Source: Escherichia coli
Lineage (GTDB): Bacteria > Pseudomonadota > Gammaproteobacteria > Enterobacterales > Enterobacteriaceae
Assembly: GCF_030013595.1 (NCBI RefSeq)
Contig: NZ_CP122768.1
Reading direction: 5' to 3' (one strand)
Length of the DNA: 64,000 nucleotides
The notes beneath the pieces are model-generated. The model was not told where the DNA came from. It worked only from the letters and a program-made list of their open reading frames with translations, and ran no database searches. A program made the position numbers and the translations under genes. Of the stretch, positions 5,336 through 59,283 are shown one piece after another (within the stretch, counting starts at the first letter, position 1; each line of letters opens with the position of its first letter).

Positions 5336-6811
<1,476 letters not shown>

Positions 6812-6814
6812 AGG

Positions 6815-7006
6815 CTACTTGGTCAACAGCAGCTTGCCAGCCTGAGTTTTACGGAGCAGATATTCTTGCCCGTCATGATCGATAATCAGTTTGCCATCCG
6901 GACCTAACAGTGTCTGGCTGGTAATTCGCCGGATGGGCTGCGGGGAAGCGGTCTTGTGATTGGCATCCGTTTCAGGCGTGAGTTTTCTGCTATCCGTATA
7001 ACGCAT
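6815..7006 (-). CDS. ydiE: HemP-like small protein
   Basis: 63-aa ORF ([12 protein letters not shown]...) inside the longer 72-aa track ORF; start chosen from remembered YdiE N-terminus. Confidence 0.7.
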
Positions 7007-13644: not shown

Positions 13645-13938
13645 TTAGCCGTAGCGAAAATCAATACCGAAGGTGCCTGCAGGATATTGCCACTGTTCGA
13701 GAATAGTGTTGCCGCACAGCACCCGACAGGTGCCGCACTCCAGACAACCGGCGGAATCGAAATGAATGTTTCCTGCGTCATCCTGCTTATAAAGTCCGGC
13801 AGGGCAAGCTTTCATTAATTTACGGAATTCATTGATATCGGGATTTGCCGCCAAAATGATATGCGGGTGGCCCTCATCAACATGGAATTTATTGACGCCT
13901 AATTTGATGTCGACGTTAACCGTAGCGTTCTGGCTCAT
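13645..13938 (-). CDS. ydiT: FixX-like ferredoxin
   Basis: 97-aa Cys-rich ORF; 4-bp overlap with ydiS. Confidence 0.85.
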   Translation of the reverse strand: MSQNATVNVDIKLGVNKFHVDEGHPHIILAANPDINEFRKLMKACPAGLYKQDDAGNIHFDSAGCLECGTCRVLCGNTILEQWQYPAGTFGIDFRYG

Positions 13939-21032: not shown

Positions 21033-21111
21033 TGTTAATTCCTGATACAGGTGTGATTTTCCCTACGCCAGATGGAGAATTAGCGCACAGAGACTCACGA
21101 AATATTATTGC

Positions 21112-24270: not shown

Positions 24271-25485
24271 TTACCCACCCGGAGCGACATTTTCCTTTAG
24301 CGAGTGATGCCGCGTTTCTTTGCGGCTGCGTAAGCCGATAAACAGTGCCAGTAAAAAGCCGATGGCAGCGATGGCGGTATCGAACCACATAATATCGGCA
24401 ATACTTCTTTGGGACAGATGAGCCGTAATCAACGGAATGGTAAATGTTGCAATACTGCCCGCACTGTAATAGATCCCTGTAGCTTTACCTTTAGCATAGG
24501 GGAAACGTTCAGCCATTAACGTCAGGCCAATTTGCACAACACCTCCAGCAGAGGTAAAACCAATGACAAAAGCAAATATTATCACCACATAAAATGTGGG
24601 ATGCAGACAGACGGTAAACAGAGCAATAAATGAGATAAAGGTGTACAGCATCAGTAATGTTGTTGGGCGAACGGTATTACGAATGAGTGGAGCGGTAATA
24701 AATACACAAAGCAGCGAACCCACGGTGTAGATACTAAGTAGTTTGATCGACATAGTGTATGACATGCCTGCAACAAATTGTCCGTACTGTGCCAGCCACT
24801 GGCTAACCAGATAAAACGTTGCCATTGAGATATAGCCATATAAGGTATAACTGGCTAAATCGATAATTGAACAGCGATGTTCCGTAGAGCTGGTGGTTTT
24901 CTTTATGACAGGTAAGCGACGACCCGGATGGGGTGGGAACGTACAACGGCATAAAAACAGAGCGTTAATAAACATAATGCCTGCGGCAATCATAAAGGAC
25001 CAACCGAACCACAGTTCAGCCCACACTAACAGGATGATGATTAGCGGTAATAAAAATTGTCCGCTGGAAACAAATGCTTTAATTAAAATATTGGCTGTCC
25101 CCGGTGAGCGTGGAAAAGCTTCCATCAAACTGGGATAGGTGCCTGCATCGAGAAAACTGTTTGCCATTCCCGCCAGAAAGCCAAAAACATAAGCGATAAT
25201 GATGTTATTGGTGTGCAGGATGCCAAAAAAGAAGGCCATATAGCAGCACATCCCGAGCATGATAAAAGGGCGGCGACCAAAGCGATCGGATAATAATCCT
25301 GCAAAAAGCAAGACACTTAATCGACCAATGCCCAGTGATGAGATAACTATCGAGACGCCCGCGGCATTAGTCTGCCAAAGCGTCTCCAGCGAGGCCATAT
25401 TCAGGCTCATCAAAATGACGCCCATACCATGCACCAGGTAATTAAAATACAACCCCAGTGCGGTAGGGTAATAGGGATTTTTCAT
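24271..25485 (-). CDS. ydiM: MFS transporter
   Basis: 404-aa 12-TM ORF with MFS motif DRFGRR. Confidence 0.85.
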   Translation of the reverse strand: MKNPYYPTALGLYFNYLVHGMGVILMSLNMASLETLWQTNAAGVSIVISSLGIGRLSVLLFAGLLSDRFGRRPFIMLGMCCYMAFFFGILHTNNIIIAYVFGFLAGMANSFLDAGTYPSLMEAFPRSPGTANILIKAFVSSGQFLLPLIIILLVWAELWFGWSFMIAAGIMFINALFLCRCTFPPHPGRRLPVIKKTTSSTEHRCSIIDLASYTLYGYISMATFYLVSQWLAQYGQFVAGMSYTMSIKLLSIYTVGSLLCVFITAPLIRNTVRPTTLLMLYTFISFIALFTVCLHPTFYVVIIFAFVIGFTSAGGVVQIGLTLMAERFPYAKGKATGIYYSAGSIATFTIPLITAHLSQRSIADIMWFDTAIAAIGFLLALFIGLRSRKETRHHSLKENVAPGG

Positions 25486-25584
25486 AGGTTCTACTTAGCA
25501 AAGGTGCTTTAAAAAGTGTAGCGATGTTGTGTCAGTATCCGTTCATTATTGTTGTAACAACGACAATTCCTTTCTGTGGAGAAA

Positions 25585-30800: not shown

Positions 30801-30927
30801 GGCGATGCAGCGACTGCCGCGTAATCGCTGTCTGGCGACCGGATATTCCTGCCGTAGCCAGGTAAAACGGGTCGAAGGCACGGGGGTACGCCATCCTGTG
30901 CAGGCTTTACTGGAGATTATTAAATGA
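27871..30927 (+). CDS. ydiJ: large FAD-linked oxidoreductase with Fe-S/Cys-rich C-terminal domains
   Basis: 1018-aa ORF recognised as YdiJ; start overlaps nothing upstream, stop overlaps menI start by 4 bp. Confidence 0.9.
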   Translation: MIPQISQAPGVVQLVLNFLQELEQQGFTGDTATSYADRLTMSTDNSIYQLLPDAVVFPRSTADVALIARLAAQERYSSLIFTPRGGGTGTNGQALNQGIIVDMSRHMNRIIEINPEEGWVRVEAGVIKDQLNQYLKPFGYFFAPELSTSNRATLGGMINTDASGQGSLVYGKTSDHVLSVRAVLLGGDILDTQPLPVELAETLGKSNTTIGRIYNTVYQRCRQQRQLIIDNFPKLNRFLTGYDLRHVFNDEMTEFDLTRILTGSEGTLAFITEARLDITRLPKVRRLVNVKYDSFDSALRNAPFMVEARALSVETVDSKVLNLAREDIVWHSVSELITDVPDKEMLGLNIVEFAGDDETLIDERVNALCARLDELIASQQAGVIGWQVCRELAGVERIYAMRKKAVGLLGNAKGAAKPIPFAEDTCVPPEHLADYIAEFRALLDSHGLSYGMFGHVDAGVLHVRPALDMCDPQQEILMKQISDDVVALTAKYGGLLWGEHGKGFRAEYSPAFFGEELFAELRKVKAAFDPHNRLNPGKICPPEGLDAPMMKVDAVKRGTFDRQIPIAVRQQWRGAMECNGNGLCFNFDARSPMCPSMKITQNRIHSPKGRATLVREWLRLLADRGVDPLKLEQELPESGVSLRTLIARTRNSWHANKGEYDFSHEVKEAMSGCLACKACSTQCPIKIDVPEFRSRFLQLYHTRYLRPLRDHLVATVESYAPLMARAPKTFNFFINQPLVRKLSEKHIGMVDLPLLSVPSLQQQMVGHRSANMTLEQLEALNAEQKARTVLVVQDPFTSYYDAQVVADFVRLVEKLGFQPVLLPFSPNGKAQHIKGFLNRFAKTAKKTADFLNRMAKLGMPMVGVDPALVLCYRDEYKLALGEERGEFNVLLANEWLASALDSQPVATVSGESWYFFGHCTEVTALPGAPAQWAAIFARFGAKLENVSVGCCGMAGTYGHEAKNHKNSLGIYELSWHQAMQRLPRNRCLATGYSCRSQVKRVEGTGVRHPVQALLEIIK

Positions 30928-34044: not shown

Positions 34045-34791
34045 ATGTTAAGTATTAAAGATTTACACGTCAGCGTGGAAGATAAAGCTATCCTGCGTGG
34101 ATTAAGCCTCGACGTTCGTCCCGGCGAAGTTCACGCCATTATGGGGCCAAACGGTTCTGGCAAAAGTACCTTATCGGCAACGCTTGCCGGGCGAGAAGAT
34201 TATGAGGTGACGGGCGGCGCAGTTGAGTTCAAAGGCAAAGATTTGCTTGCGCTGTCGCCGGAAGATCGTGCAGGTGAAGGCATCTTTATGGCCTTCCAGT
34301 ATCCGGTGGAAATTCCCGGCGTCAGTAACCAGTTTTTCCTGCAAACGGCACTTAATGCGGTGCGCAGCTATCGCGGCCAGGAAACGCTCGACCGCTTTGA
34401 TTTTCAAGATTTGATGGAAGAGAAAATCGCTCTCCTGAAGATGCCGGAAGATTTATTAACCCGTTCGGTAAACGTTGGTTTTTCCGGCGGCGAGAAAAAG
34501 CGCAACGATATTTTGCAAATGGCGGTGCTGGAACCGGAGTTATGTATTCTTGATGAGTCGGACTCCGGGCTGGATATTGACGCATTAAAAGTGGTTGCCG
34601 ATGGCGTGAACTCGCTGCGTGACGGCAAGCGTTCATTCATCATTGTTACGCACTACCAACGCATTCTCGACTACATCAAGCCTGATTACGTCCATGTGCT
34701 GTATCAGGGACGAATTGTGAAATCCGGCGATTTCACGTTGGTCAAACAACTGGAGGAGCAGGGTTATGGCTGGCTTACCGAACAGCAGTAA
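34045..34791 (+). CDS. sufC: Fe-S cluster assembly ATPase
   Basis: 248-aa ORF with Walker A GPNGSGKST. Confidence 0.95.
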   Translation: MLSIKDLHVSVEDKAILRGLSLDVRPGEVHAIMGPNGSGKSTLSATLAGREDYEVTGGAVEFKGKDLLALSPEDRAGEGIFMAFQYPVEIPGVSNQFFLQTALNAVRSYRGQETLDRFDFQDLMEEKIALLKMPEDLLTRSVNVGFSGGEKKRNDILQMAVLEPELCILDESDSGLDIDALKVVADGVNSLRDGKRSFIIVTHYQRILDYIKPDYVHVLYQGRIVKSGDFTLVKQLEEQGYGWLTEQQ

Positions 34792-36037
34792 CGCGCTGCA
34801 ACAGTGGCATCATTTGTTTGAAGCCGAGGGTGCAAAACGCTCCCCGCAAGCACAGCAGCATTTACAACAATTGCTGCGTACCGGACTGCCGACACGGAAA
34901 CATGAAAACTGGAAATATACGCCGCTGGAAGGGCTGACCAATAGCCAGTTTGTCTGCATTGCGGGAGAGATATCCCCACAGCAGCGAGATGCCTTAGCGT
35001 TAACGTTAGACGCTGTGCGGCTGGTATTTGTCGATGGACGTTACGTGTCAGCACTGAGCGATGCGACTGAAGGCAGCGGGTATGAAGTGAGCATTAACGA
35101 TGACCGCCAGGGGTTACCCGACGCTATTCAGGCGGAAGTGTTTCTGCATTTGACGGAAAGCCTGGCGCAAAGCGTGACGCATATCGCAGTGAAGCGCGGT
35201 CAACGACCAGCAAAGCCATTGCTGTTAATGCATATTACCCAGGGCGTGGCAGGTGAAGAGGTGAACACTGCCCATTACCGACATCATCTGGATCTGGCGG
35301 AAGGTGCCGAAGCAACGGTGATCGAACATTTTGTCAGCCTTAATGATGCTCGTCACTTCACCGGCGCACGGTTCACTATCAACGTCGCAGCGAACGCCCA
35401 CTTGCAGCATATCAAGCTGGCGTTTGAAAACCCGGTCAGTCACCACTTTGCCCATAACGATTTGTTGCTGGCTGACGATGCTACCGCATTTAGCCACAGT
35501 TTCCTGCTGGGTGGCGCAGTGTTACGACACAACACCAGTACGCAACTCAATGGCGAAAACAGCACGCTGCGGATCAATAGCCTGGCGATGCCGGTGAAAA
35601 ACGAGGTGTGTGATACCCGTACATGGCTGGAACACAATAAAGGTTTTTGTAACAGCCGACAGTTGCATAAAACTATCGTCAGCGACAAAGGCCGTGCGGT
35701 GTTTAACGGTCTGATCAACGTCGCGCAGCACGCCATCAAAACGGATGGTCAGATGACCAACAATAATCTGCTGATGGGCAAACTGGCGGAGGTGGATACG
35801 AAACCGCAGCTGGAAATCTATGCAGATGATGTGAAATGCAGCCACGGCGCGACGGTGGGGCGTATTGATGACGAACAGATGTTTTATCTGCGCTCGCGCG
35901 GGATCAATCAGCAGGATGCCCAGCAGATGATCATCTACGCCTTTGCTGCTGAACTGACGGAAGCACTGCGTGATGAGGGGCTTAAACAGCAGGTGCTGGC
36001 CCGAATCGGTCAACGACTGCCAGGAGGTGCAAGATGA
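34766..36037 (+). CDS. sufD: Fe-S cluster assembly protein SufD
   Basis: 423-aa ORF; overlaps sufC by 26 bp and sufS by 4 bp. Confidence 0.9.
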
Positions 36038-42081: not shown

Positions 42082-44832
<2,751 letters not shown>

Positions 44833-45558: not shown

Positions 45559-46227
45559 ATGTCCTTCACTCGACGCAAATTTGTTCTGGGGATGGGAACA
45601 GTAATCTTTTTTACTGGTTCTGCGTCTTCTCTGTTAGCGAACACGAGGCAAGAAAAGGAAGTTCGGTATGCCATGATTCATGACGAGTCACGGTGCAATG
45701 GCTGTAATATTTGCGCCCGCGCATGCCGTAAAACTAACCACGTCCCCGCTCAGGGAAGCCGTTTATCGATAGCACACATTCCAGTCACCGATAACGACAA
45801 CGAAACGCAGTATCACTATTTTCGCCAGTCATGCCAGCACTGTGAAGATGCTCCTTGCATCGATGTTTGCCCGACAGGGGCGTCGTGGCGTGATGAGCAG
45901 GGGATCGTGCGGGTAGAAAAATCGCAGTGCATCGGCTGCAGTTATTGCATTGGCGCTTGCCCGTACCAGGTTCGCTACCTTAACCCTGTCACTAAAGTGG
46001 CAGATAAATGTGATTTCTGCGCTGAGTCCCGACTGGCAAAAGGCTTTCCGCCCATTTGCGTCAGCGCCTGCCCGGAACACGCCTTGATCTTTGGTCGCGA
46101 AGATAGCCCAGAAATTCAGGCGTGGTTGCAGGAAAATAAATACTATCAATATCAGCTACCTGGTGCCGGGAAACCGCATCTGTATCGCCGATTCGGTCAA
46201 CATTTGATTAAAAAGGAAAATGTATGA
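45559..46227 (+). CDS. ydhX: ferredoxin-like protein with twin-arginine signal
   Basis: 222-aa ORF from MSFTRRKFVLG (Tat motif) with four Cys-cluster motifs; track ORF starts 17 codons earlier. Confidence 0.8.
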   Translation: MSFTRRKFVLGMGTVIFFTGSASSLLANTRQEKEVRYAMIHDESRCNGCNICARACRKTNHVPAQGSRLSIAHIPVTDNDNETQYHYFRQSCQHCEDAPCIDVCPTGASWRDEQGIVRVEKSQCIGCSYCIGACPYQVRYLNPVTKVADKCDFCAESRLAKGFPPICVSACPEHALIFGREDSPEIQAWLQENKYYQYQLPGAGKPHLYRRFGQHLIKKENV

Positions 46228-47012: not shown

Positions 47013-47825
47013 ATGATCATTACACGAGCAGACCTGCGAGAATGGCGTATCGGAGCGGTGATGTATCGCTGGTTCCTGCGCCATTTCCCACGCGGCGGTA
47101 GTTATGCCGATATTCATCATGCACTGATTGAGGAAGGATATACGGACTGGGCGGAGAGTCTGGTTGAGTATGCGTGGAAAAAATGGCTGGCGGATGAAAA
47201 CTTCGCGCATCAGGAAGTTTCCTCTATGCAAAAATTGGCCACAGATCCCGGAGAGAGAGCATTTTGTAGTCAGTTTGCCCGCAGCGACGATCATGCTCGC
47301 ATCGGCTGTTGTGACGATAACGCCAGAATCGCAACCGCTGGGTATGCTGCACAAATTGCCAGTATGGGTTATAGCGTGCGGATTGGAAGTGTCGGCTTTA
47401 ACAGTCACATTGGCAGCTCCGGTGAGCGTGCACGGGTTGCTGTAACCGGCAATTCTTCGCGGATAAGCAGCGCTGGAGATAGTAGTCGGATTGCGAATAC
47501 CGGAATGCGAGTACGCGTTTGTACATTGGGTGAACGGTGTCATGTCGCCAGTAATGGTGACCTGGTGCAAATCGCCAGCTTTGGCGCAAACGCCAGAATT
47601 GCCAACAGCGGCGACAATGTACACATCATTGCCAGCGGTGAAGATTCAACAGTAGTGAGCACGGGCGTGGTCGACTCAATTATTCTCGGGCCAGGGGGAA
47701 GCGCCGCACTGGCATATCATGACGGCGAAAGAGTTCGCTTCGCCGTCGCCATTGAAGGTGAAAACAATATTCGAGCCGGAGTCCGCTATCGCCTTAATGA
47801 ACAGCATCAGTTTGTTGAGTGCTGA
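47013..47825 (+). CDS. ydhT: uncharacterised protein with about 13 tandem 9-residue repeats
   Basis: 270-aa ORF; central region is periodic x-R-[IV]-x-x-x-G-x-x. Confidence 0.8.
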   Translation: MIITRADLREWRIGAVMYRWFLRHFPRGGSYADIHHALIEEGYTDWAESLVEYAWKKWLADENFAHQEVSSMQKLATDPGERAFCSQFARSDDHARIGCCDDNARIATAGYAAQIASMGYSVRIGSVGFNSHIGSSGERARVAVTGNSSRISSAGDSSRIANTGMRVRVCTLGERCHVASNGDLVQIASFGANARIANSGDNVHIIASGEDSTVVSTGVVDSIILGPGGSAALAYHDGERVRFAVAIEGENNIRAGVRYRLNEQHQFVEC

Positions 47826-47830
47826 TAGCT

Positions 47831-49441
47831 TTACATTTGATTAAACGAAAGACGCTGACGAGCACGGGATGCAGGCTTTACGACCGCCTGAGCCATCGCC
47901 TCACCAATTTCTGCACATGCCGTAAGTCCCTGTACGAATGGCTGGTCGTGCATCAACCAGGGCAACGCGCCGAACGCTACGCGCCCACGAATTTCTTCGG
48001 GTTGCTGTAGCGTATAATCTTCGCCAACATCAGGGATTTCATCCCCTGTTTTCTGTAATTGTTCGCGTAGTCCAGGGAAAGGAATATCTTTCACTTTAAG
48101 CGGACGCTGCCCACGGGCATCAATAAAAACGTCAAACGAGTAGCTGTTGTCTTCCGTTTTCAGGACGGTGCGCGACTCATTAATTTCCATTTCGTAGTCT
48201 TCACCGAGGGCGAGTATATGAATGATTCCCGCTTCACGTAAGGCCAGCAGCCGACGAATAGACTCTGAAGGGATTGCCGCATAATTATCTATGAAAACTC
48301 GGGCAAGGCCTTTACTGAACCGTTTATGGTCGTGTTCATTCAGATGTGGAACAATTTCCTGTACTGCTTCATGCAGGCGCAGAATGACATAACGCCAGGG
48401 AACAGTATGTTTTTCTCGTTTATTGCGTTCGACTTCCTGGAGATTTTTTTCTGCCCAGTCAAATGGGTCGCGTTGTTTGCGCTCGGCAAACCAGGCTTGA
48501 GCAAAGGAATCAACATTCAGGCTCTCTAAGGCTATGCGTTGGCTCCAGTCTGGATCAGCAAACTTGATTTCCTCTACTATCAATCTAAATACCCGATCCA
48601 AAAGGCCCTTTTCGCCTTTTTGAATCTCAGCATTTAATGCCTGATCAGTGACGATGTGTAAGGGCTCGTAGGGAATAGGGCAATAGAAATCGGCTTCGGG
48701 TAAAATACCCGTGCGCGACATTAACGTAATATTTAGCTTTTCACTTGCGTTATCGCGGTGAAAAATGACGTGTTGTTTATCATCTTCAATGAACGAACCA
48801 TGCTGAATAGCCACTGCCATTGCCGCATCTAGTCCGCTCAAGGATGTTCCCATAATACCCACGTTACACGCATCGACCTTTGCTTCCATCAGGCCTGACC
48901 ACGGGCTGGGAAAATACGTTCTGGTTGCTTCTTCTTCATCAGGCCAGACGTGACCCGTCGCGATCACTGCTAAATCAAACGTCTCGCTGGGTAAATCCTG
49001 ATTTGTAGCGAGCATGACGCCAGCATTTATAATTTGCAGATCGGTAACCTGGCATGATTCATAAACAGCCACTGCAAATTTTTGCTGTCGTGCCTGGTCT
49101 ACTAATCGTAAAAATTGATCGCGGAAATATTCGCCCAGCAGAATTCGCGGTAAAAACTGGCGATCGTGCAAGGTTTCTTTTTTAACGCCATAACGCTGGA
49201 GATGGCTGGCTTCTTGCTTTTGTAGCCATTCGAGATACGTACAATAAATCGGCGGTATTTCAATACTGGCAATATTTGCCAGCATCAGTTTTGAGTTTTC
49301 CTCATCACTGTATGGCATCCCGACACCGGCTTCGTCAGCCTGCTCGAAGATAGAAATAGAAAGTGGAGTTTGTTGCTGCAGAAGCGAGAATAAGGTGTAG
49401 ATCCCCGTAGGCCCGGCACCCACAATAGCAATTTTTTTCAT
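47831..49441 (-). CDS. ydhS: FAD/NAD(P)-binding protein of unknown function
   Basis: 536-aa ORF with N-terminal GAGPTG Rossmann motif. Confidence 0.8.
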   Translation of the reverse strand: MKKIAIVGAGPTGIYTLFSLLQQQTPLSISIFEQADEAGVGMPYSDEENSKLMLANIASIEIPPIYCTYLEWLQKQEASHLQRYGVKKETLHDRQFLPRILLGEYFRDQFLRLVDQARQQKFAVAVYESCQVTDLQIINAGVMLATNQDLPSETFDLAVIATGHVWPDEEEATRTYFPSPWSGLMEAKVDACNVGIMGTSLSGLDAAMAVAIQHGSFIEDDKQHVIFHRDNASEKLNITLMSRTGILPEADFYCPIPYEPLHIVTDQALNAEIQKGEKGLLDRVFRLIVEEIKFADPDWSQRIALESLNVDSFAQAWFAERKQRDPFDWAEKNLQEVERNKREKHTVPWRYVILRLHEAVQEIVPHLNEHDHKRFSKGLARVFIDNYAAIPSESIRRLLALREAGIIHILALGEDYEMEINESRTVLKTEDNSYSFDVFIDARGQRPLKVKDIPFPGLREQLQKTGDEIPDVGEDYTLQQPEEIRGRVAFGALPWLMHDQPFVQGLTACAEIGEAMAQAVVKPASRARQRLSFNQM

Positions 49442-49566: not shown

Positions 49567-49872
49567 TCAGGCGAGTTTTGCCTGATTGATTTGACTAAGT
49601 GGCTCATTGACATCGAAAACTTTGGCGACAACTTCCTCAACGCCGAGATTTTTCAGTCGGGCAGTATGTTTTTCCAGATAGGCAAGGGCGCTTTTTTCAT
49701 CAGTAAAAAGGTAGATCCCACCGGCTTCGTGGTTCTTTTCACTTTCTGTCCATACCTTCCACAGAAAACCAGGTTCCTGATTAATCGACTCAGCAAGCGG
49801 TTTAAGCTGCTCAGCCATTGCGTCGCCAAATGGGCCATTGAAAGAAAAATGAAGTTGTAACAAAGTTGCCAT
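49567..49872 (-). CDS. ydhR: small uncharacterised protein
   Basis: 101-aa ORF. Confidence 0.75.
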
Positions 49873-49980
49873 AGCGATTCTCCTTCTGATAACGCATACG
49901 AAGACAGTGTAAATCTTTTAACGTATTGGATACAGAGAAGAAACAGAGGGAAAAAAGGAGAAGACCAGATTAAGAAAATC

Positions 49981-50057
49981 TGGTGCGTCCGAGTGGACTC
50001 GAACCACCGACCCCCACCATGTCAAGGTGGTGCTCTAACCAACTGAGCTACGGACGC
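49981..50057 (-). tRNA. valW: tRNA-Val (anticodon GAC)
   Basis: Reverse complement reads GCGTCCGTAGCTCAGTTGGTTAGAGCACCACCTTGACATGGTGGGGGTCGGTGGTTCGAGTCCACTCGGACGCACCA; valV/valW naming is by position and uncertain. Confidence 0.9.
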
Positions 50058-56775: not shown

Positions 56776-57708
56776 ATGTGGTCAGAATATTCACTCGAAG
56801 TTGTTGATGCGGTAGCGCGTAATGGTAGTTTTAGCGCTGCGGCACAGGAGTTGCATCGCGTTCCTTCTGCGGTCAGCTATACCGTGCGTCAGCTGGAAGA
56901 GTGGCTGGCGGTGCCGCTGTTTGAACGACGTCACCGTGATGTGGAACTGACCGCTGCCGGGGCGTGGTTTCTCAAAGAAGGGCGCTCTGTTGTCAAAAAA
57001 ATGCAGATCACCCGGCAGCAATGTCAGCAGATAGCGAATGGCTGGCGCGGTCAGTTAGCTATCGCAGTGGATAATATTGTCAGGCCAGAACGTACACGGC
57101 AGATGATCGTTGATTTTTATCGCCATTTTGATGATGTCGAACTTCTTGTCTTTCAGGAAGTGTTCAACGGTGTCTGGGATGCGCTTTCCGACGGGCGCGT
57201 GGAACTGGCGATTGGCGCAACACGCGCGATTCCGGTAGGCGGTCGTTATGCCTTCCGGGATATGGGGATGCTAAGCTGGAGTTGCGTTGTTGCCAGTCAC
57301 CACCCGCTGGCGTTGATGGATGGCCCGTTCAGCGATGATACGTTGCGCAACTGGCCGTCGTTGGTGCGCGAAGACACCTCGCGAACGCTACCTAAACGTA
57401 TTACCTGGTTGCTGGATAACCAAAAAAGACTTGTCGTGCCTGACTGGGAATCATCGGCAACCTGTATCTCGGCAGGATTATGCATAGGGATGGTGCCAAC
57501 ACATTTCGCCAAACCGTGGCTTAATGAGGGTAAGTGGGTAGCACTAGAACTGGAAAACCCCTTCCCGGATTCGGCATGTTGTCTGACATGGCAGCAAAAT
57601 GATATGTCGCCTGCGTTAACCTGGTTGCTTGAGTATCTCGGCGATAGTGAGACGCTGAATAAGGAGTGGCTGCGGGAGCCGGAAGAGACTCCCGCAACGG
57701 GTGATTAA
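56776..57708 (+). CDS. ydhB: LysR-family transcriptional regulator (YdhB/PunR)
   Basis: 310-aa ORF with N-terminal LysR HTH; divergent from ydhC. Confidence 0.85.
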
Positions 57709-58730
57709 CGACGATAGTCGCGGAACGGGCCGTCAGCCACGGAGCGGCGTTCAATCAACCGCGGATGCACTTCAATGGATTGCGGTTCTTCGCGTTTATT
57801 GACGATACGATCCAACAGCATGTTGAACGCCGTTTCGCCCAACGAATCTTTTGGCTGATGGATCGTGGTCAGCGCCGGCGTAAAATAGCGGGCGTTGCGC
57901 ACGTTATCATAACCGATCAGCGAAACATCCTGCGGCACGCGCAGACCCATTTCATCAGCAGCACAAAGTGCGCCCATTGCCATGATATCGCCACCACAGA
58001 AGACGGCAGTAGGGCGATGCGGTTGCGACAGTATTTGCTGCATGGCGCGATAACCGGATTCAGGTTCAAAATCACCCTGTACAATCCAGCTTTCCGGCAC
58101 CTTGATCATCGCTTCTTCCATCGCCTTCATAAAACCGGCAAGGCGGCCTGCGCCAGTGTTACGTTCCAGCGGGCCGGGGATAACGCCGATTTCGCGGTGA
58201 CCGCGTTCAATCAGATAACGCCCGGCCATGTAGCCGCCTTCGAACGCGTTATCAATGACCGCATCGGTGAAGTCAGCTTTTGCTTCACCCCAGTCCATCA
58301 CTACCATTGGGATATGGCGATACTCTTCCAGCATCGCCAGCAACGGCTCTGGGTACTCAGAACACATCACCAGCAGACCATCGACGCGTTTTTGCGCCAT
58401 CATCGACAGATAAGCCCGCTGTTTCTCAAGATTGTTCCACGCATTGCCCAGAATCAGGGTGTAACCTTTCTGGAAGCAATTTTTTTCAACCGCTTCAATG
58501 ATCTCGGCAAAATAGGCCGCTTCGCTGCTGGTCGCCAGCAAACCGATAGACTTGGTGTGGTTAACCTTCAGACTACGCGCCACCGCGCTAGGGGAGTAGT
58601 GTAATTCTTTGATCGCTGCCCACACGGCGTTGCGCGTTTCTTCAGCGACGAAACGTGTTTTGTTGATCACGTGTGACACGGTTGTAGTGGAAACGTTTGC
58701 TCGTTTCGCTACATCTTTTATTGTTGCCAT
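57705..58730 (-). CDS. purR: purine repressor (LacI family)
   Basis: 341-aa [27 protein letters not shown]... Confidence 0.95.
58687..58704 (-). promoter_or_regulatory. PurR-box-like operator within the purR 5' coding region
   Basis: ggAAACGTTTGCtcg matches the PurR half-palindrome AAACGTTTGC. Confidence 0.5.
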
Positions 58731-58774
58731 TCCATTTCACTCCAGACCCTAACTTCAGCTCCTGCAAAATCGCA

Positions 58775-58792
58775 AGGTAAACGTTTGCCTTT
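58775..58792 (-). promoter_or_regulatory. PurR-box-like operator in the purR leader
   Basis: aaggtAAACGTTTGCctt, palindromic match to PurR consensus. Confidence 0.55.
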
Positions 58793-59028
58793 ACACACCT
58801 TACGCACAACAAAAGTGTTGCGGTACGCCGGAAAAACGACACGGAGCGTCAGGAAGGGGTCAATGGCCAGTACGCAAATAGTGTAAGCGTGGAATTTTGG
58901 CCGATCTTGACGAAAAGGGGAAGTGGTAAAAACACTTATCATTATAAATGACGGGAGATTTTTTCATCACAGTGTGTAAAAATGCGTAATATCACTTTTT
59001 GTGTGGTAATAAAAAAGGAGAAAACTTG

Positions 59029-59118
59029 ATGAGCACCGACCTTAAATTTTCACTGGTAACAACGATTATCGTCCTCGGTTTGATCGTGGCCGTGGGTTTG
59101 ACTGCCGCGCTGCACTGA
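59029..59118 (+). CDS. ynhF: small hydrophobic membrane protein (29 aa)
   Basis: ATG preceded by aggag 8 nt upstream; encodes MSTDLKFSLVTTIIVLGLIVAVGLTAALH, a single TM helix; below the ORF-track length cutoff. Confidence 0.65.
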   Translation: MSTDLKFSLVTTIIVLGLIVAVGLTAALH

Positions 59119-59283
59119 TTTCCTCTCGAGGGAGCGCGTTCTCCCTCGCATCTCCTTCCTGTTTGTTAGCAAAATGGCAAAAGTGTTTTCTCTTTTTGTT
59201 ATTTTCATTTTTTTGTGATTGCTGTCATGCTTTCGCCACTTTAATGAATATCGCGTAATGACGCAAAGAGGTGGAGATAAGGC

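Follow-up and report, generated by a model that had tools for sequence, protein, structure and literature searches.

Convergent genes whose stop codons overlap within one of the tetranucleotides TTAA, TTAG, CTAA or CTAG represent the modal type of convergent overlap in prokaryotes; for Escherichia coli, the count of convergent overlaps is 58 (Lillo & Krakauer 2007, PMC2174442). Two kinds of hairpin-bearing transcript end have been described. According to PMC6061677, Rho-dependent transcripts have steady-state 3' ends with a stable stem-loop and no U-rich tail, the end lies right after the stem, and rut-like sequence is found downstream. According to a second body of work, convergent pairs in E. 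coli often share an overlapping bidirectional terminator, a Rho-independent hairpin that is unlike an intrinsic terminator (Ju et al. 2019, as reported in bioRxiv 10.1101/2022.10.23.513370); these terminators are said to pause the polymerases, with head-on and trailing collisions then bringing about release. The genes purR and punR each regulate purine metabolism, and conservation of the gene context that they share has been noted before (PMC8376909). Term-seq of E. coli K-12 has also mapped a dominant "primary" 3' end of purR, additionally classed as antisense to ydhB, at MG1655 position 1738907 (LB, OD 0.4) and, in the sheet for a second growth condition, at 1738908 (Adams et al. 2021, PMC7815308, supplementary file 1).

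Here, we analyzed a stretch of 64,000 nucleotides of E. coli DNA (NCBI RefSeq assembly GCF_030013595.1, contig NZ_CP122768.1), referred to below as the window, in which punR (ydhB) and purR converge. A preliminary description of this DNA had assigned the tetranucleotide ttaa at the boundary to the TAA codon of ydhB on the plus strand and to that of purR on the minus strand, and the coordinates, the open reading frames and the RefSeq annotation all agree with that assignment (Table 1). The window sequence at the boundary is ggtgaTTAAcgacg, within the broader text ...acgggtgaTTAAcgacgatag...; four bases are common to the two open reading frames and two bases are common to their stop codons. The identity of both genes is supported by NCBIfam equivalogs: PunR scored 528.9 bits against NF008294 (cut-off 345), a profile that spans residues 1-300 only, and PurR scored 711.1 bits against NF007979 over its full length (cut-off 501). 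RefSeq annotates an identical 4-nt overlap in the closest strain, and the same 4-nt overlap in K-12 MG1655 (purR 1737844..1738869, punR 1738866..1739798). A 4-kb segment of the window had matches in 5,425 of 5,426 complete genomes (best match, 99.9%). The junction is a stable, nearly invariant one: a 101-nt segment spanning punR/purR was found with at least 99% identity in 5,393 of 5,423 E. coli genomes. The junction consists of two real genes on opposite strands, arranged tail to tail with both stops in TTAA, and is alike in kind to the 4-nt stop/stop overlaps of PMC2174442, with no difference. Because 4-base stop/stop overlaps are a documented and common class, the punR/purR overlap is ordinary; as a class it is not above chance, and it is already known and annotated. 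What the locus shows beyond that class is an origin for the overlap, with the punR stop shifting between two sites, one in a hairpin loop and one at the complement of the purR stop, as described below.

Table 1. Coordinates of the features at the punR/purR boundary and of the same-strand gene overlaps in the window.
Feature	Position	Strand	Remarks
punR (ydhB), LysR-type activator of punC, 310 aa	56776..57708	+	ORF, RefSeq, NF008294
purR, LacI-type purine repressor, 341 aa	57705..58730	-	ORF, RefSeq, NF007979
TTAA	57705..57708	both strands	punR TAA 57706-57708 (+), purR TAA 57707-57705 (-)
12-bp GC-rich boundary hairpin	57669..57698	-	arms 57687-57698 and 57669-57680, loop 57681-57686
punR codons 305-310 (TPATGD), poorly conserved tail	57688..57705	+	only where the loop stop is absent
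Window equivalent of the K-12 purR 3' end	57666..57667	-	2-3 nt past the stem; PMC7815308, converted coordinates
btuE stop / btuD start	3061	+	TAATG, 1 nt
ydiS stop / ydiT start	13935-13938	-	ATGA, 4 nt
ydiJ stop / menI start	30924-30927	+	ATGA, 4 nt
sufC / sufD overlap	34766-34791	+	26 nt
sufD stop / sufS start	36034-36037	+	ATGA, 4 nt
ydhX stop / ydhU (annotated phsC) start	46224-46227	+	ATGA, 4 nt

The preliminary description had also listed six same-strand overlaps, reading them, for completeness, as ordinary compact junctions. That reading is supported: a codon-level check of the sequence and the RefSeq annotation showed all six lengths and gene names to be exact, and direct inspection of the coordinates found the starts and stops correct and in agreement with RefSeq. 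No further annotated gene overlaps, beyond those already listed, were found in the window. In all six pairs, the downstream start overlaps the upstream stop or sits inside the upstream gene. The pairs btuE/btuD, ydiS/ydiT, ydiJ/menI, sufD/sufS and ydhX/ydhU have the start atop the upstream stop, as in the ATGA/TAATG class of coupled cistrons, and in most of them a purine-rich stretch resembling a Shine-Dalgarno sequence lies within the upstream gene (such runs precede sufD, sufS, ydiT, menI and ydhU), whereas sufC/sufD differs from the class in overlapping by 26 nt rather than by 1 or 4. These are ordinary textbook operon junctions. Their anatomy suggests translational coupling, which would apply to the same-strand ATGA/TAATG junctions only; the convergent punR/purR overlap involves no coupling.

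At the convergent boundary, the preliminary description had seen the overlap but missed a conserved hairpin beside it. Immediately to the left of TTAA lies an inverted repeat with a perfect 8-bp core. On the purR-sense strand this repeat forms a stem of 12 bp, GUUGCGGGAGUC / GGCUCCCGCAGC, closed by a loop of 6 nt. The hairpin starts 6 nt beyond the purR stop and is contained entirely in punR codons 298-307, with one of its arms formed by the conserved PunR codons for Trp-Leu-Arg-Glu-Pro. A 73-nt segment containing the hairpin folded with a free energy of -25.2 kcal/mol (z = -4.97), and none of 200 shuffled sequences was as stable. When punR and purR were scanned in 44-nt windows, the hairpin was the most stable of all, at -23.2 kcal/mol versus -20.7 kcal/mol for the next and a mean of -8.6 kcal/mol. 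A search of the punR/purR junction against Rfam matched no family.

The mapped end of the purR transcript lies at this hairpin. The K-12 sequence here is identical to that of the window, and MG1655 coordinates were converted to window coordinates via the RefSeq annotation; the 61-nt strings given in PMC7815308 were calibrated on the ends of the aspU and aspV tRNAs and on the annotated purR stop, which placed the 3' end at base 51. The purR transcript reaches at least 38 nt into punR, and the purR-sense RNA past the hairpin is antisense to punR and untranslated. The sequence after the stem is CACUCCUU, in which 3 U in 8 nt do not make a U-tract. A scan for consensus promoters and terminators did not call the hairpin site, and nothing that it called was in excess of shuffles, the terminator-like sites of the region numbering 5 versus 3.7 +/- 2.1 in shuffled sequence. 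Because a U-tract is absent and the consensus scan left the site uncalled, the hairpin is not a canonical intrinsic terminator: the GC-rich stem-loop is there, and a U-tract holding the RNA 3' end is not. Beyond this end the purR-sense RNA is rich in C: the C/G ratio is 2.0 for the first 50 nt and 1.72 for 100 nt, values that represent a check of composition only. No Rho termination region is listed for MG1655 1738500-1739099 in supplementary file 2 of PMC7815308, a table that is not exhaustive, and the Term-seq tables of the same study list no punR-sense 3' end near the hairpin.

Further ends and end-like sites are present in the vicinity. PMC7815308 lists an "orphan" purR 3' end at MG1655 1737833, 11 nt upstream of the start codon (window position ~58741, minus strand), and an "internal" 3' end 108 nt inside purR at MG1655 1737952 (window position ~58622, minus strand); these ends may point to premature termination, or to processing, in the purR leader and the first part of its coding region. 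On the plus strand, a weak terminator-like site at 57781-57794 consists of a 5-bp stem followed by TTTATTG and is located 73 nt past the punR stop, antisense to purR. This site is the sole candidate for a punR terminator, but sites of its kind are no more numerous in the region than in shuffles.

We then compared the junction with its relatives. When one genome per species was scanned, 80 loci with close relatives of PunR were obtained, all in Enterobacteriaceae and with 84-98% identity. In 78 of these the sequence reached far enough for the junction to be counted, giving 79 junctions with that of the window. The convergent neighbor was purR in all 78 loci, and PurR had 341 aa in every one. 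A stable hairpin was found at the same place in all 78 loci; in the 77 aligned ones it had 8-14 pairs and free energies from -15.7 to -25.3 kcal/mol (median, -21.0 kcal/mol), even though the hairpin sequences themselves were 75 different ones among the 77 aligned loci. At one pair position, AU occurred 43 times, CG 19 times, GU 10 times and UA twice, and several other positions alternated between GC and AU. The arm encoding Trp-Leu-Arg-Glu-Pro varied with the protein, Glu being replaced by Ala, Thr, Val or Gln, and the opposite arm compensated. Loop size and stem register differed among genera; that is, a hairpin at this spot is kept, and homologous pairs are not fixed.

The variable arm fell out of register in the MAFFT alignment of the junctions, since neither loop size nor stem register is constant from genus to genus. 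Conservation of the hairpin was judged instead by folding each sequence separately, by an anchored table of pairs, by chimeras between species and by ranks in sliding windows. Native hairpins had a mean free energy of -20.7 kcal/mol, versus -15.3 kcal/mol for chimeras that joined half-hairpins of different species. Among the approximately 456 windows scanned per locus, the junction ranked first in 31 of 79 loci and within the top six in 58 of 79. A reading of the inverted repeat as a protein-binding palindrome was considered and rejected, because the arms co-vary rather than stay fixed in sequence. A family-wide test for asymmetry between the strands, based on G-U pairs and on free energy on both strands, gave no signal: the two strands fold equally well (mean, -20.7 versus -20.1 kcal/mol; 38 versus 37 loci, p = 0.2). 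Since both strands are equally stable, the strand on which the hairpin acts (that of purR, that of punR or both) is not readable from the sequences. These observations suggest that the functional element at the punR/purR boundary is most likely the hairpin and not the TTAA.

The TTAA, in turn, was present as a stop/stop overlap in only part of the family. The -4 state was found in 28 of the 79 junctions, including that of the window, and the remaining 51 had a gap: 14-22 nt in 45 loci, +1 in three, and +3, +5 and 45 nt in one locus each. A 303-aa PunR was present in 46 loci, a 310-aa form in 28 and lengths of 307-309 aa in 5; the stop in the loop goes with a gap of 14-22 nt, and the 310-aa form goes with the 4-nt overlap. 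In the 303-aa proteins codon 304 is a stop, and in 44 of the 46 loci this stop lies within the hairpin loop, as in ccggagTAAccgg of Klebsiella and Raoultella. In Escherichia, in most Citrobacter and in Salmonella arizonae, codon 304 specifies an amino acid (GAG in E. coli); reading then continues through the second arm, and a TAA or TAG follows exactly 21 nt on. This downstream punR stop is made up of the complement of the purR stop (TTA) and the complement of the wobble base (A or G) of the last Arg codon of purR (CGT in 60 loci, CGC in the other 19), giving TAA or TAG, respectively, on the plus strand. The purR stop complement and the wobble base thus form a stop between them, and the -4 overlap is therefore automatic in one of the three frames. 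Overlap and gap states are both present within Citrobacter, and a single point mutation would produce the overlap in the 12 loci whose gap is 17 nt. The 4-nt stop/stop overlap can arise or be lost through a single base change in the loop codon. The comparison of stop positions covers Enterobacteriaceae.

The additional residues specified by the longer form of punR are poorly conserved. Residues 303-310 showed 5-9 residue types per column in 28 sequences, whereas residues 287-302 are near-invariant, and residue 300 is the last one that the PunR family profile covers. From this pattern of sequence conservation, we infer that the 7-residue tail of PunR is dispensable. Because the extra seven residues are without conservation, the 4-nt overlap would most likely be a neutral consequence of the extreme compactness of this boundary.

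The other convergent junctions of the window provide a comparison for the arrangement at punR/purR. Ten annotated convergent junctions are found in the window, and three of them lie within 5 nt (punR/purR at -4, selO/hemP at +3 and ydhT/ydhS at +5). Seven other convergent junctions, including ldtE/lpp and ydhQ/mdtK, have one strong hairpin in a spacer of 39-145 nt, and in several the hairpin is flanked by runs of A and T. The punR/purR boundary seems to be of the same design, except that the spacer is gone and coding sequence has replaced the flanks. The two remaining convergent pairs that almost abut, selO/hemP (~6811-6815, gap of 3 nt) and ydhT/ydhS (47825-47831, gap of 5 nt), showed no strong hairpin at the boundary, the best structures there reaching about -15 to -16 kcal/mol.

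Taken as a whole, these data are best explained by a compact boundary with a functional hairpin, in which the purR end is probably produced by Rho and trimming, the overlap is a neutral by-product and the same-strand overlaps are ordinary operon junctions; we assign this reading a probability of roughly 60%. In this explanation, punR and purR converge and are packed so tightly that no intergenic space is left. RNA polymerase would run past purR into the C-rich, untranslated antisense of punR and would be halted there, probably by Rho. Exonucleases acting 3' to 5' would then trim the purR RNA back to the hairpin, which would protect the RNA from that point on. Where codon 304 is a sense codon, translation of punR would pass the second arm and meet its first in-frame stop at TTAA, with the overlap and the 7-residue tail as the outcome. 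A Rho-dependent stop followed by exonuclease trimming appears to be the most likely mechanism because no U-tract follows the stem. The purR end resembles the Rho-dependent ends of PMC6061677 in having a stem-loop that lacks a U-tract, an end right after the stem and a C-rich, G-poor, rut-like stretch of RNA downstream. It differs from them in that the hairpin is embedded in the coding region of the gene on the opposite strand and in that the parts played by Rho and trimming are here deduced.

A different account of the same hairpin would make it an overlapping bidirectional terminator, at which both polymerases pause and are released by head-on and trailing collisions, with neither Rho nor U-tracts involved. 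The position of the hairpin exactly at the boundary of a convergent pair, its equal folding on both strands, the absence of U-tracts on both sides and the single strong boundary hairpins at seven other convergent junctions of the window are all in keeping with this proposal, as is the existence of a published class of terminators unlike intrinsic ones and independent of Rho (bioRxiv 10.1101/2022.10.23.513370). The punR/purR boundary is like this class in having one strand-symmetric boundary hairpin that is not intrinsic-like, but differs in that only the purR 3' end is documented of the two expected and in that the E. coli hairpin is translated as part of punR. The punR-sense 3' end that the proposal calls for near the hairpin is absent from the Term-seq tables (PMC7815308). 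Moreover, punR appears to be weakly expressed, and collisions would therefore be rare. We regard bidirectional termination as possible, though on balance unlikely. The hairpin would in either case work like a known kind of 3'-end element, associated either with protection of a Rho-dependent end or with a bidirectional boundary. That it should act as a canonical Rho-independent terminator, whether for purR alone or for both genes, is scarcely credible: there is a GC-rich 12-bp stem directly after the stop codon, and E. coli has a moderately U-rich distal sequence, CUCCUUAUUC, but the 8 nt after the stem hold only 1-2 U in 66 of 77 loci, the mapped 3' end lies 2-3 nt past the stem and not 7-9 nt into a U-tract, and the site went uncalled in the scan described above.

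The tail-to-tail arrangement itself might instead be a regulatory device, in which convergent transcription or antisense pairing reciprocally tunes purR and punR. Both products regulate purine metabolism in a conserved shared context (PMC8376909), the genes are tail to tail in all 78 loci and the purR transcript enters punR. However, the 4-nt overlap gives way to a gap in most of the family, and shared function or inheritance alone can explain the adjacency; we consider such a device improbable. Highly improbable, in our judgment, is a more elaborate version in which the hairpin would be a selected two-way 3'-end element, convergent transcription would reciprocally set the levels of both regulators and the position of the punR stop would tune the unfolding of the hairpin by ribosomes.

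Gene overlaps are standard in compact bacterial genomes and those described here are already in every E. coli annotation, and in themselves they matter little. The hairpin and the shifting punR stop codon are a small descriptive addition. The locus offers a modest, clean example of a 3'-end hairpin that is maintained inside coding sequence, with one arm fixed by codons and the other compensating, and punR/purR is a convenient site at which termination by Rho plus trimming can be compared with collision-driven termination where no intergenic DNA is present.

Several additional observations were made in the window. Beyond the start of purR, a full-length match (396 bits) to the Rfam family STnc550, a Salmonella sRNA family, covers 58731-59121 on the plus strand. 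Its first base adjoins the start codon of purR, which is encoded on the other strand, and the small gene cydH (59029-59118) falls within it. Because the match adjoins the purR start and contains cydH, the STnc550 "sRNA" family probably represents the cydH mRNA together with the purR upstream region. The gene ydhV (42729..44832) has a run of 7 G at 43007-43013, versus 6 in the closest strain, which shifts the frame after approximately residue 97 and splits the gene into open reading frames at 42645..43106 and 43003..44832 instead of one encoding a 700-aa protein; this split reflects either a pseudogene or a homopolymer sequencing error. Between ydiM and ydiL, a 99.9%-identical reference strain carries an IS5-like element, ISKpn26 (24447-25427 of its segment), that is absent from the window (25486-25584). 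The ydiF-aroD spacer at 21033-21111 is 79 nt long in the window and ~65 nt longer, at 144 nt, in the closest strain. Finally, a match to HPnc0260, an Rfam family of bacterial antisense RNAs, lies at 49856-50019 on the plus strand, antisense to tandem tRNA-Val genes and the end of ydhR.
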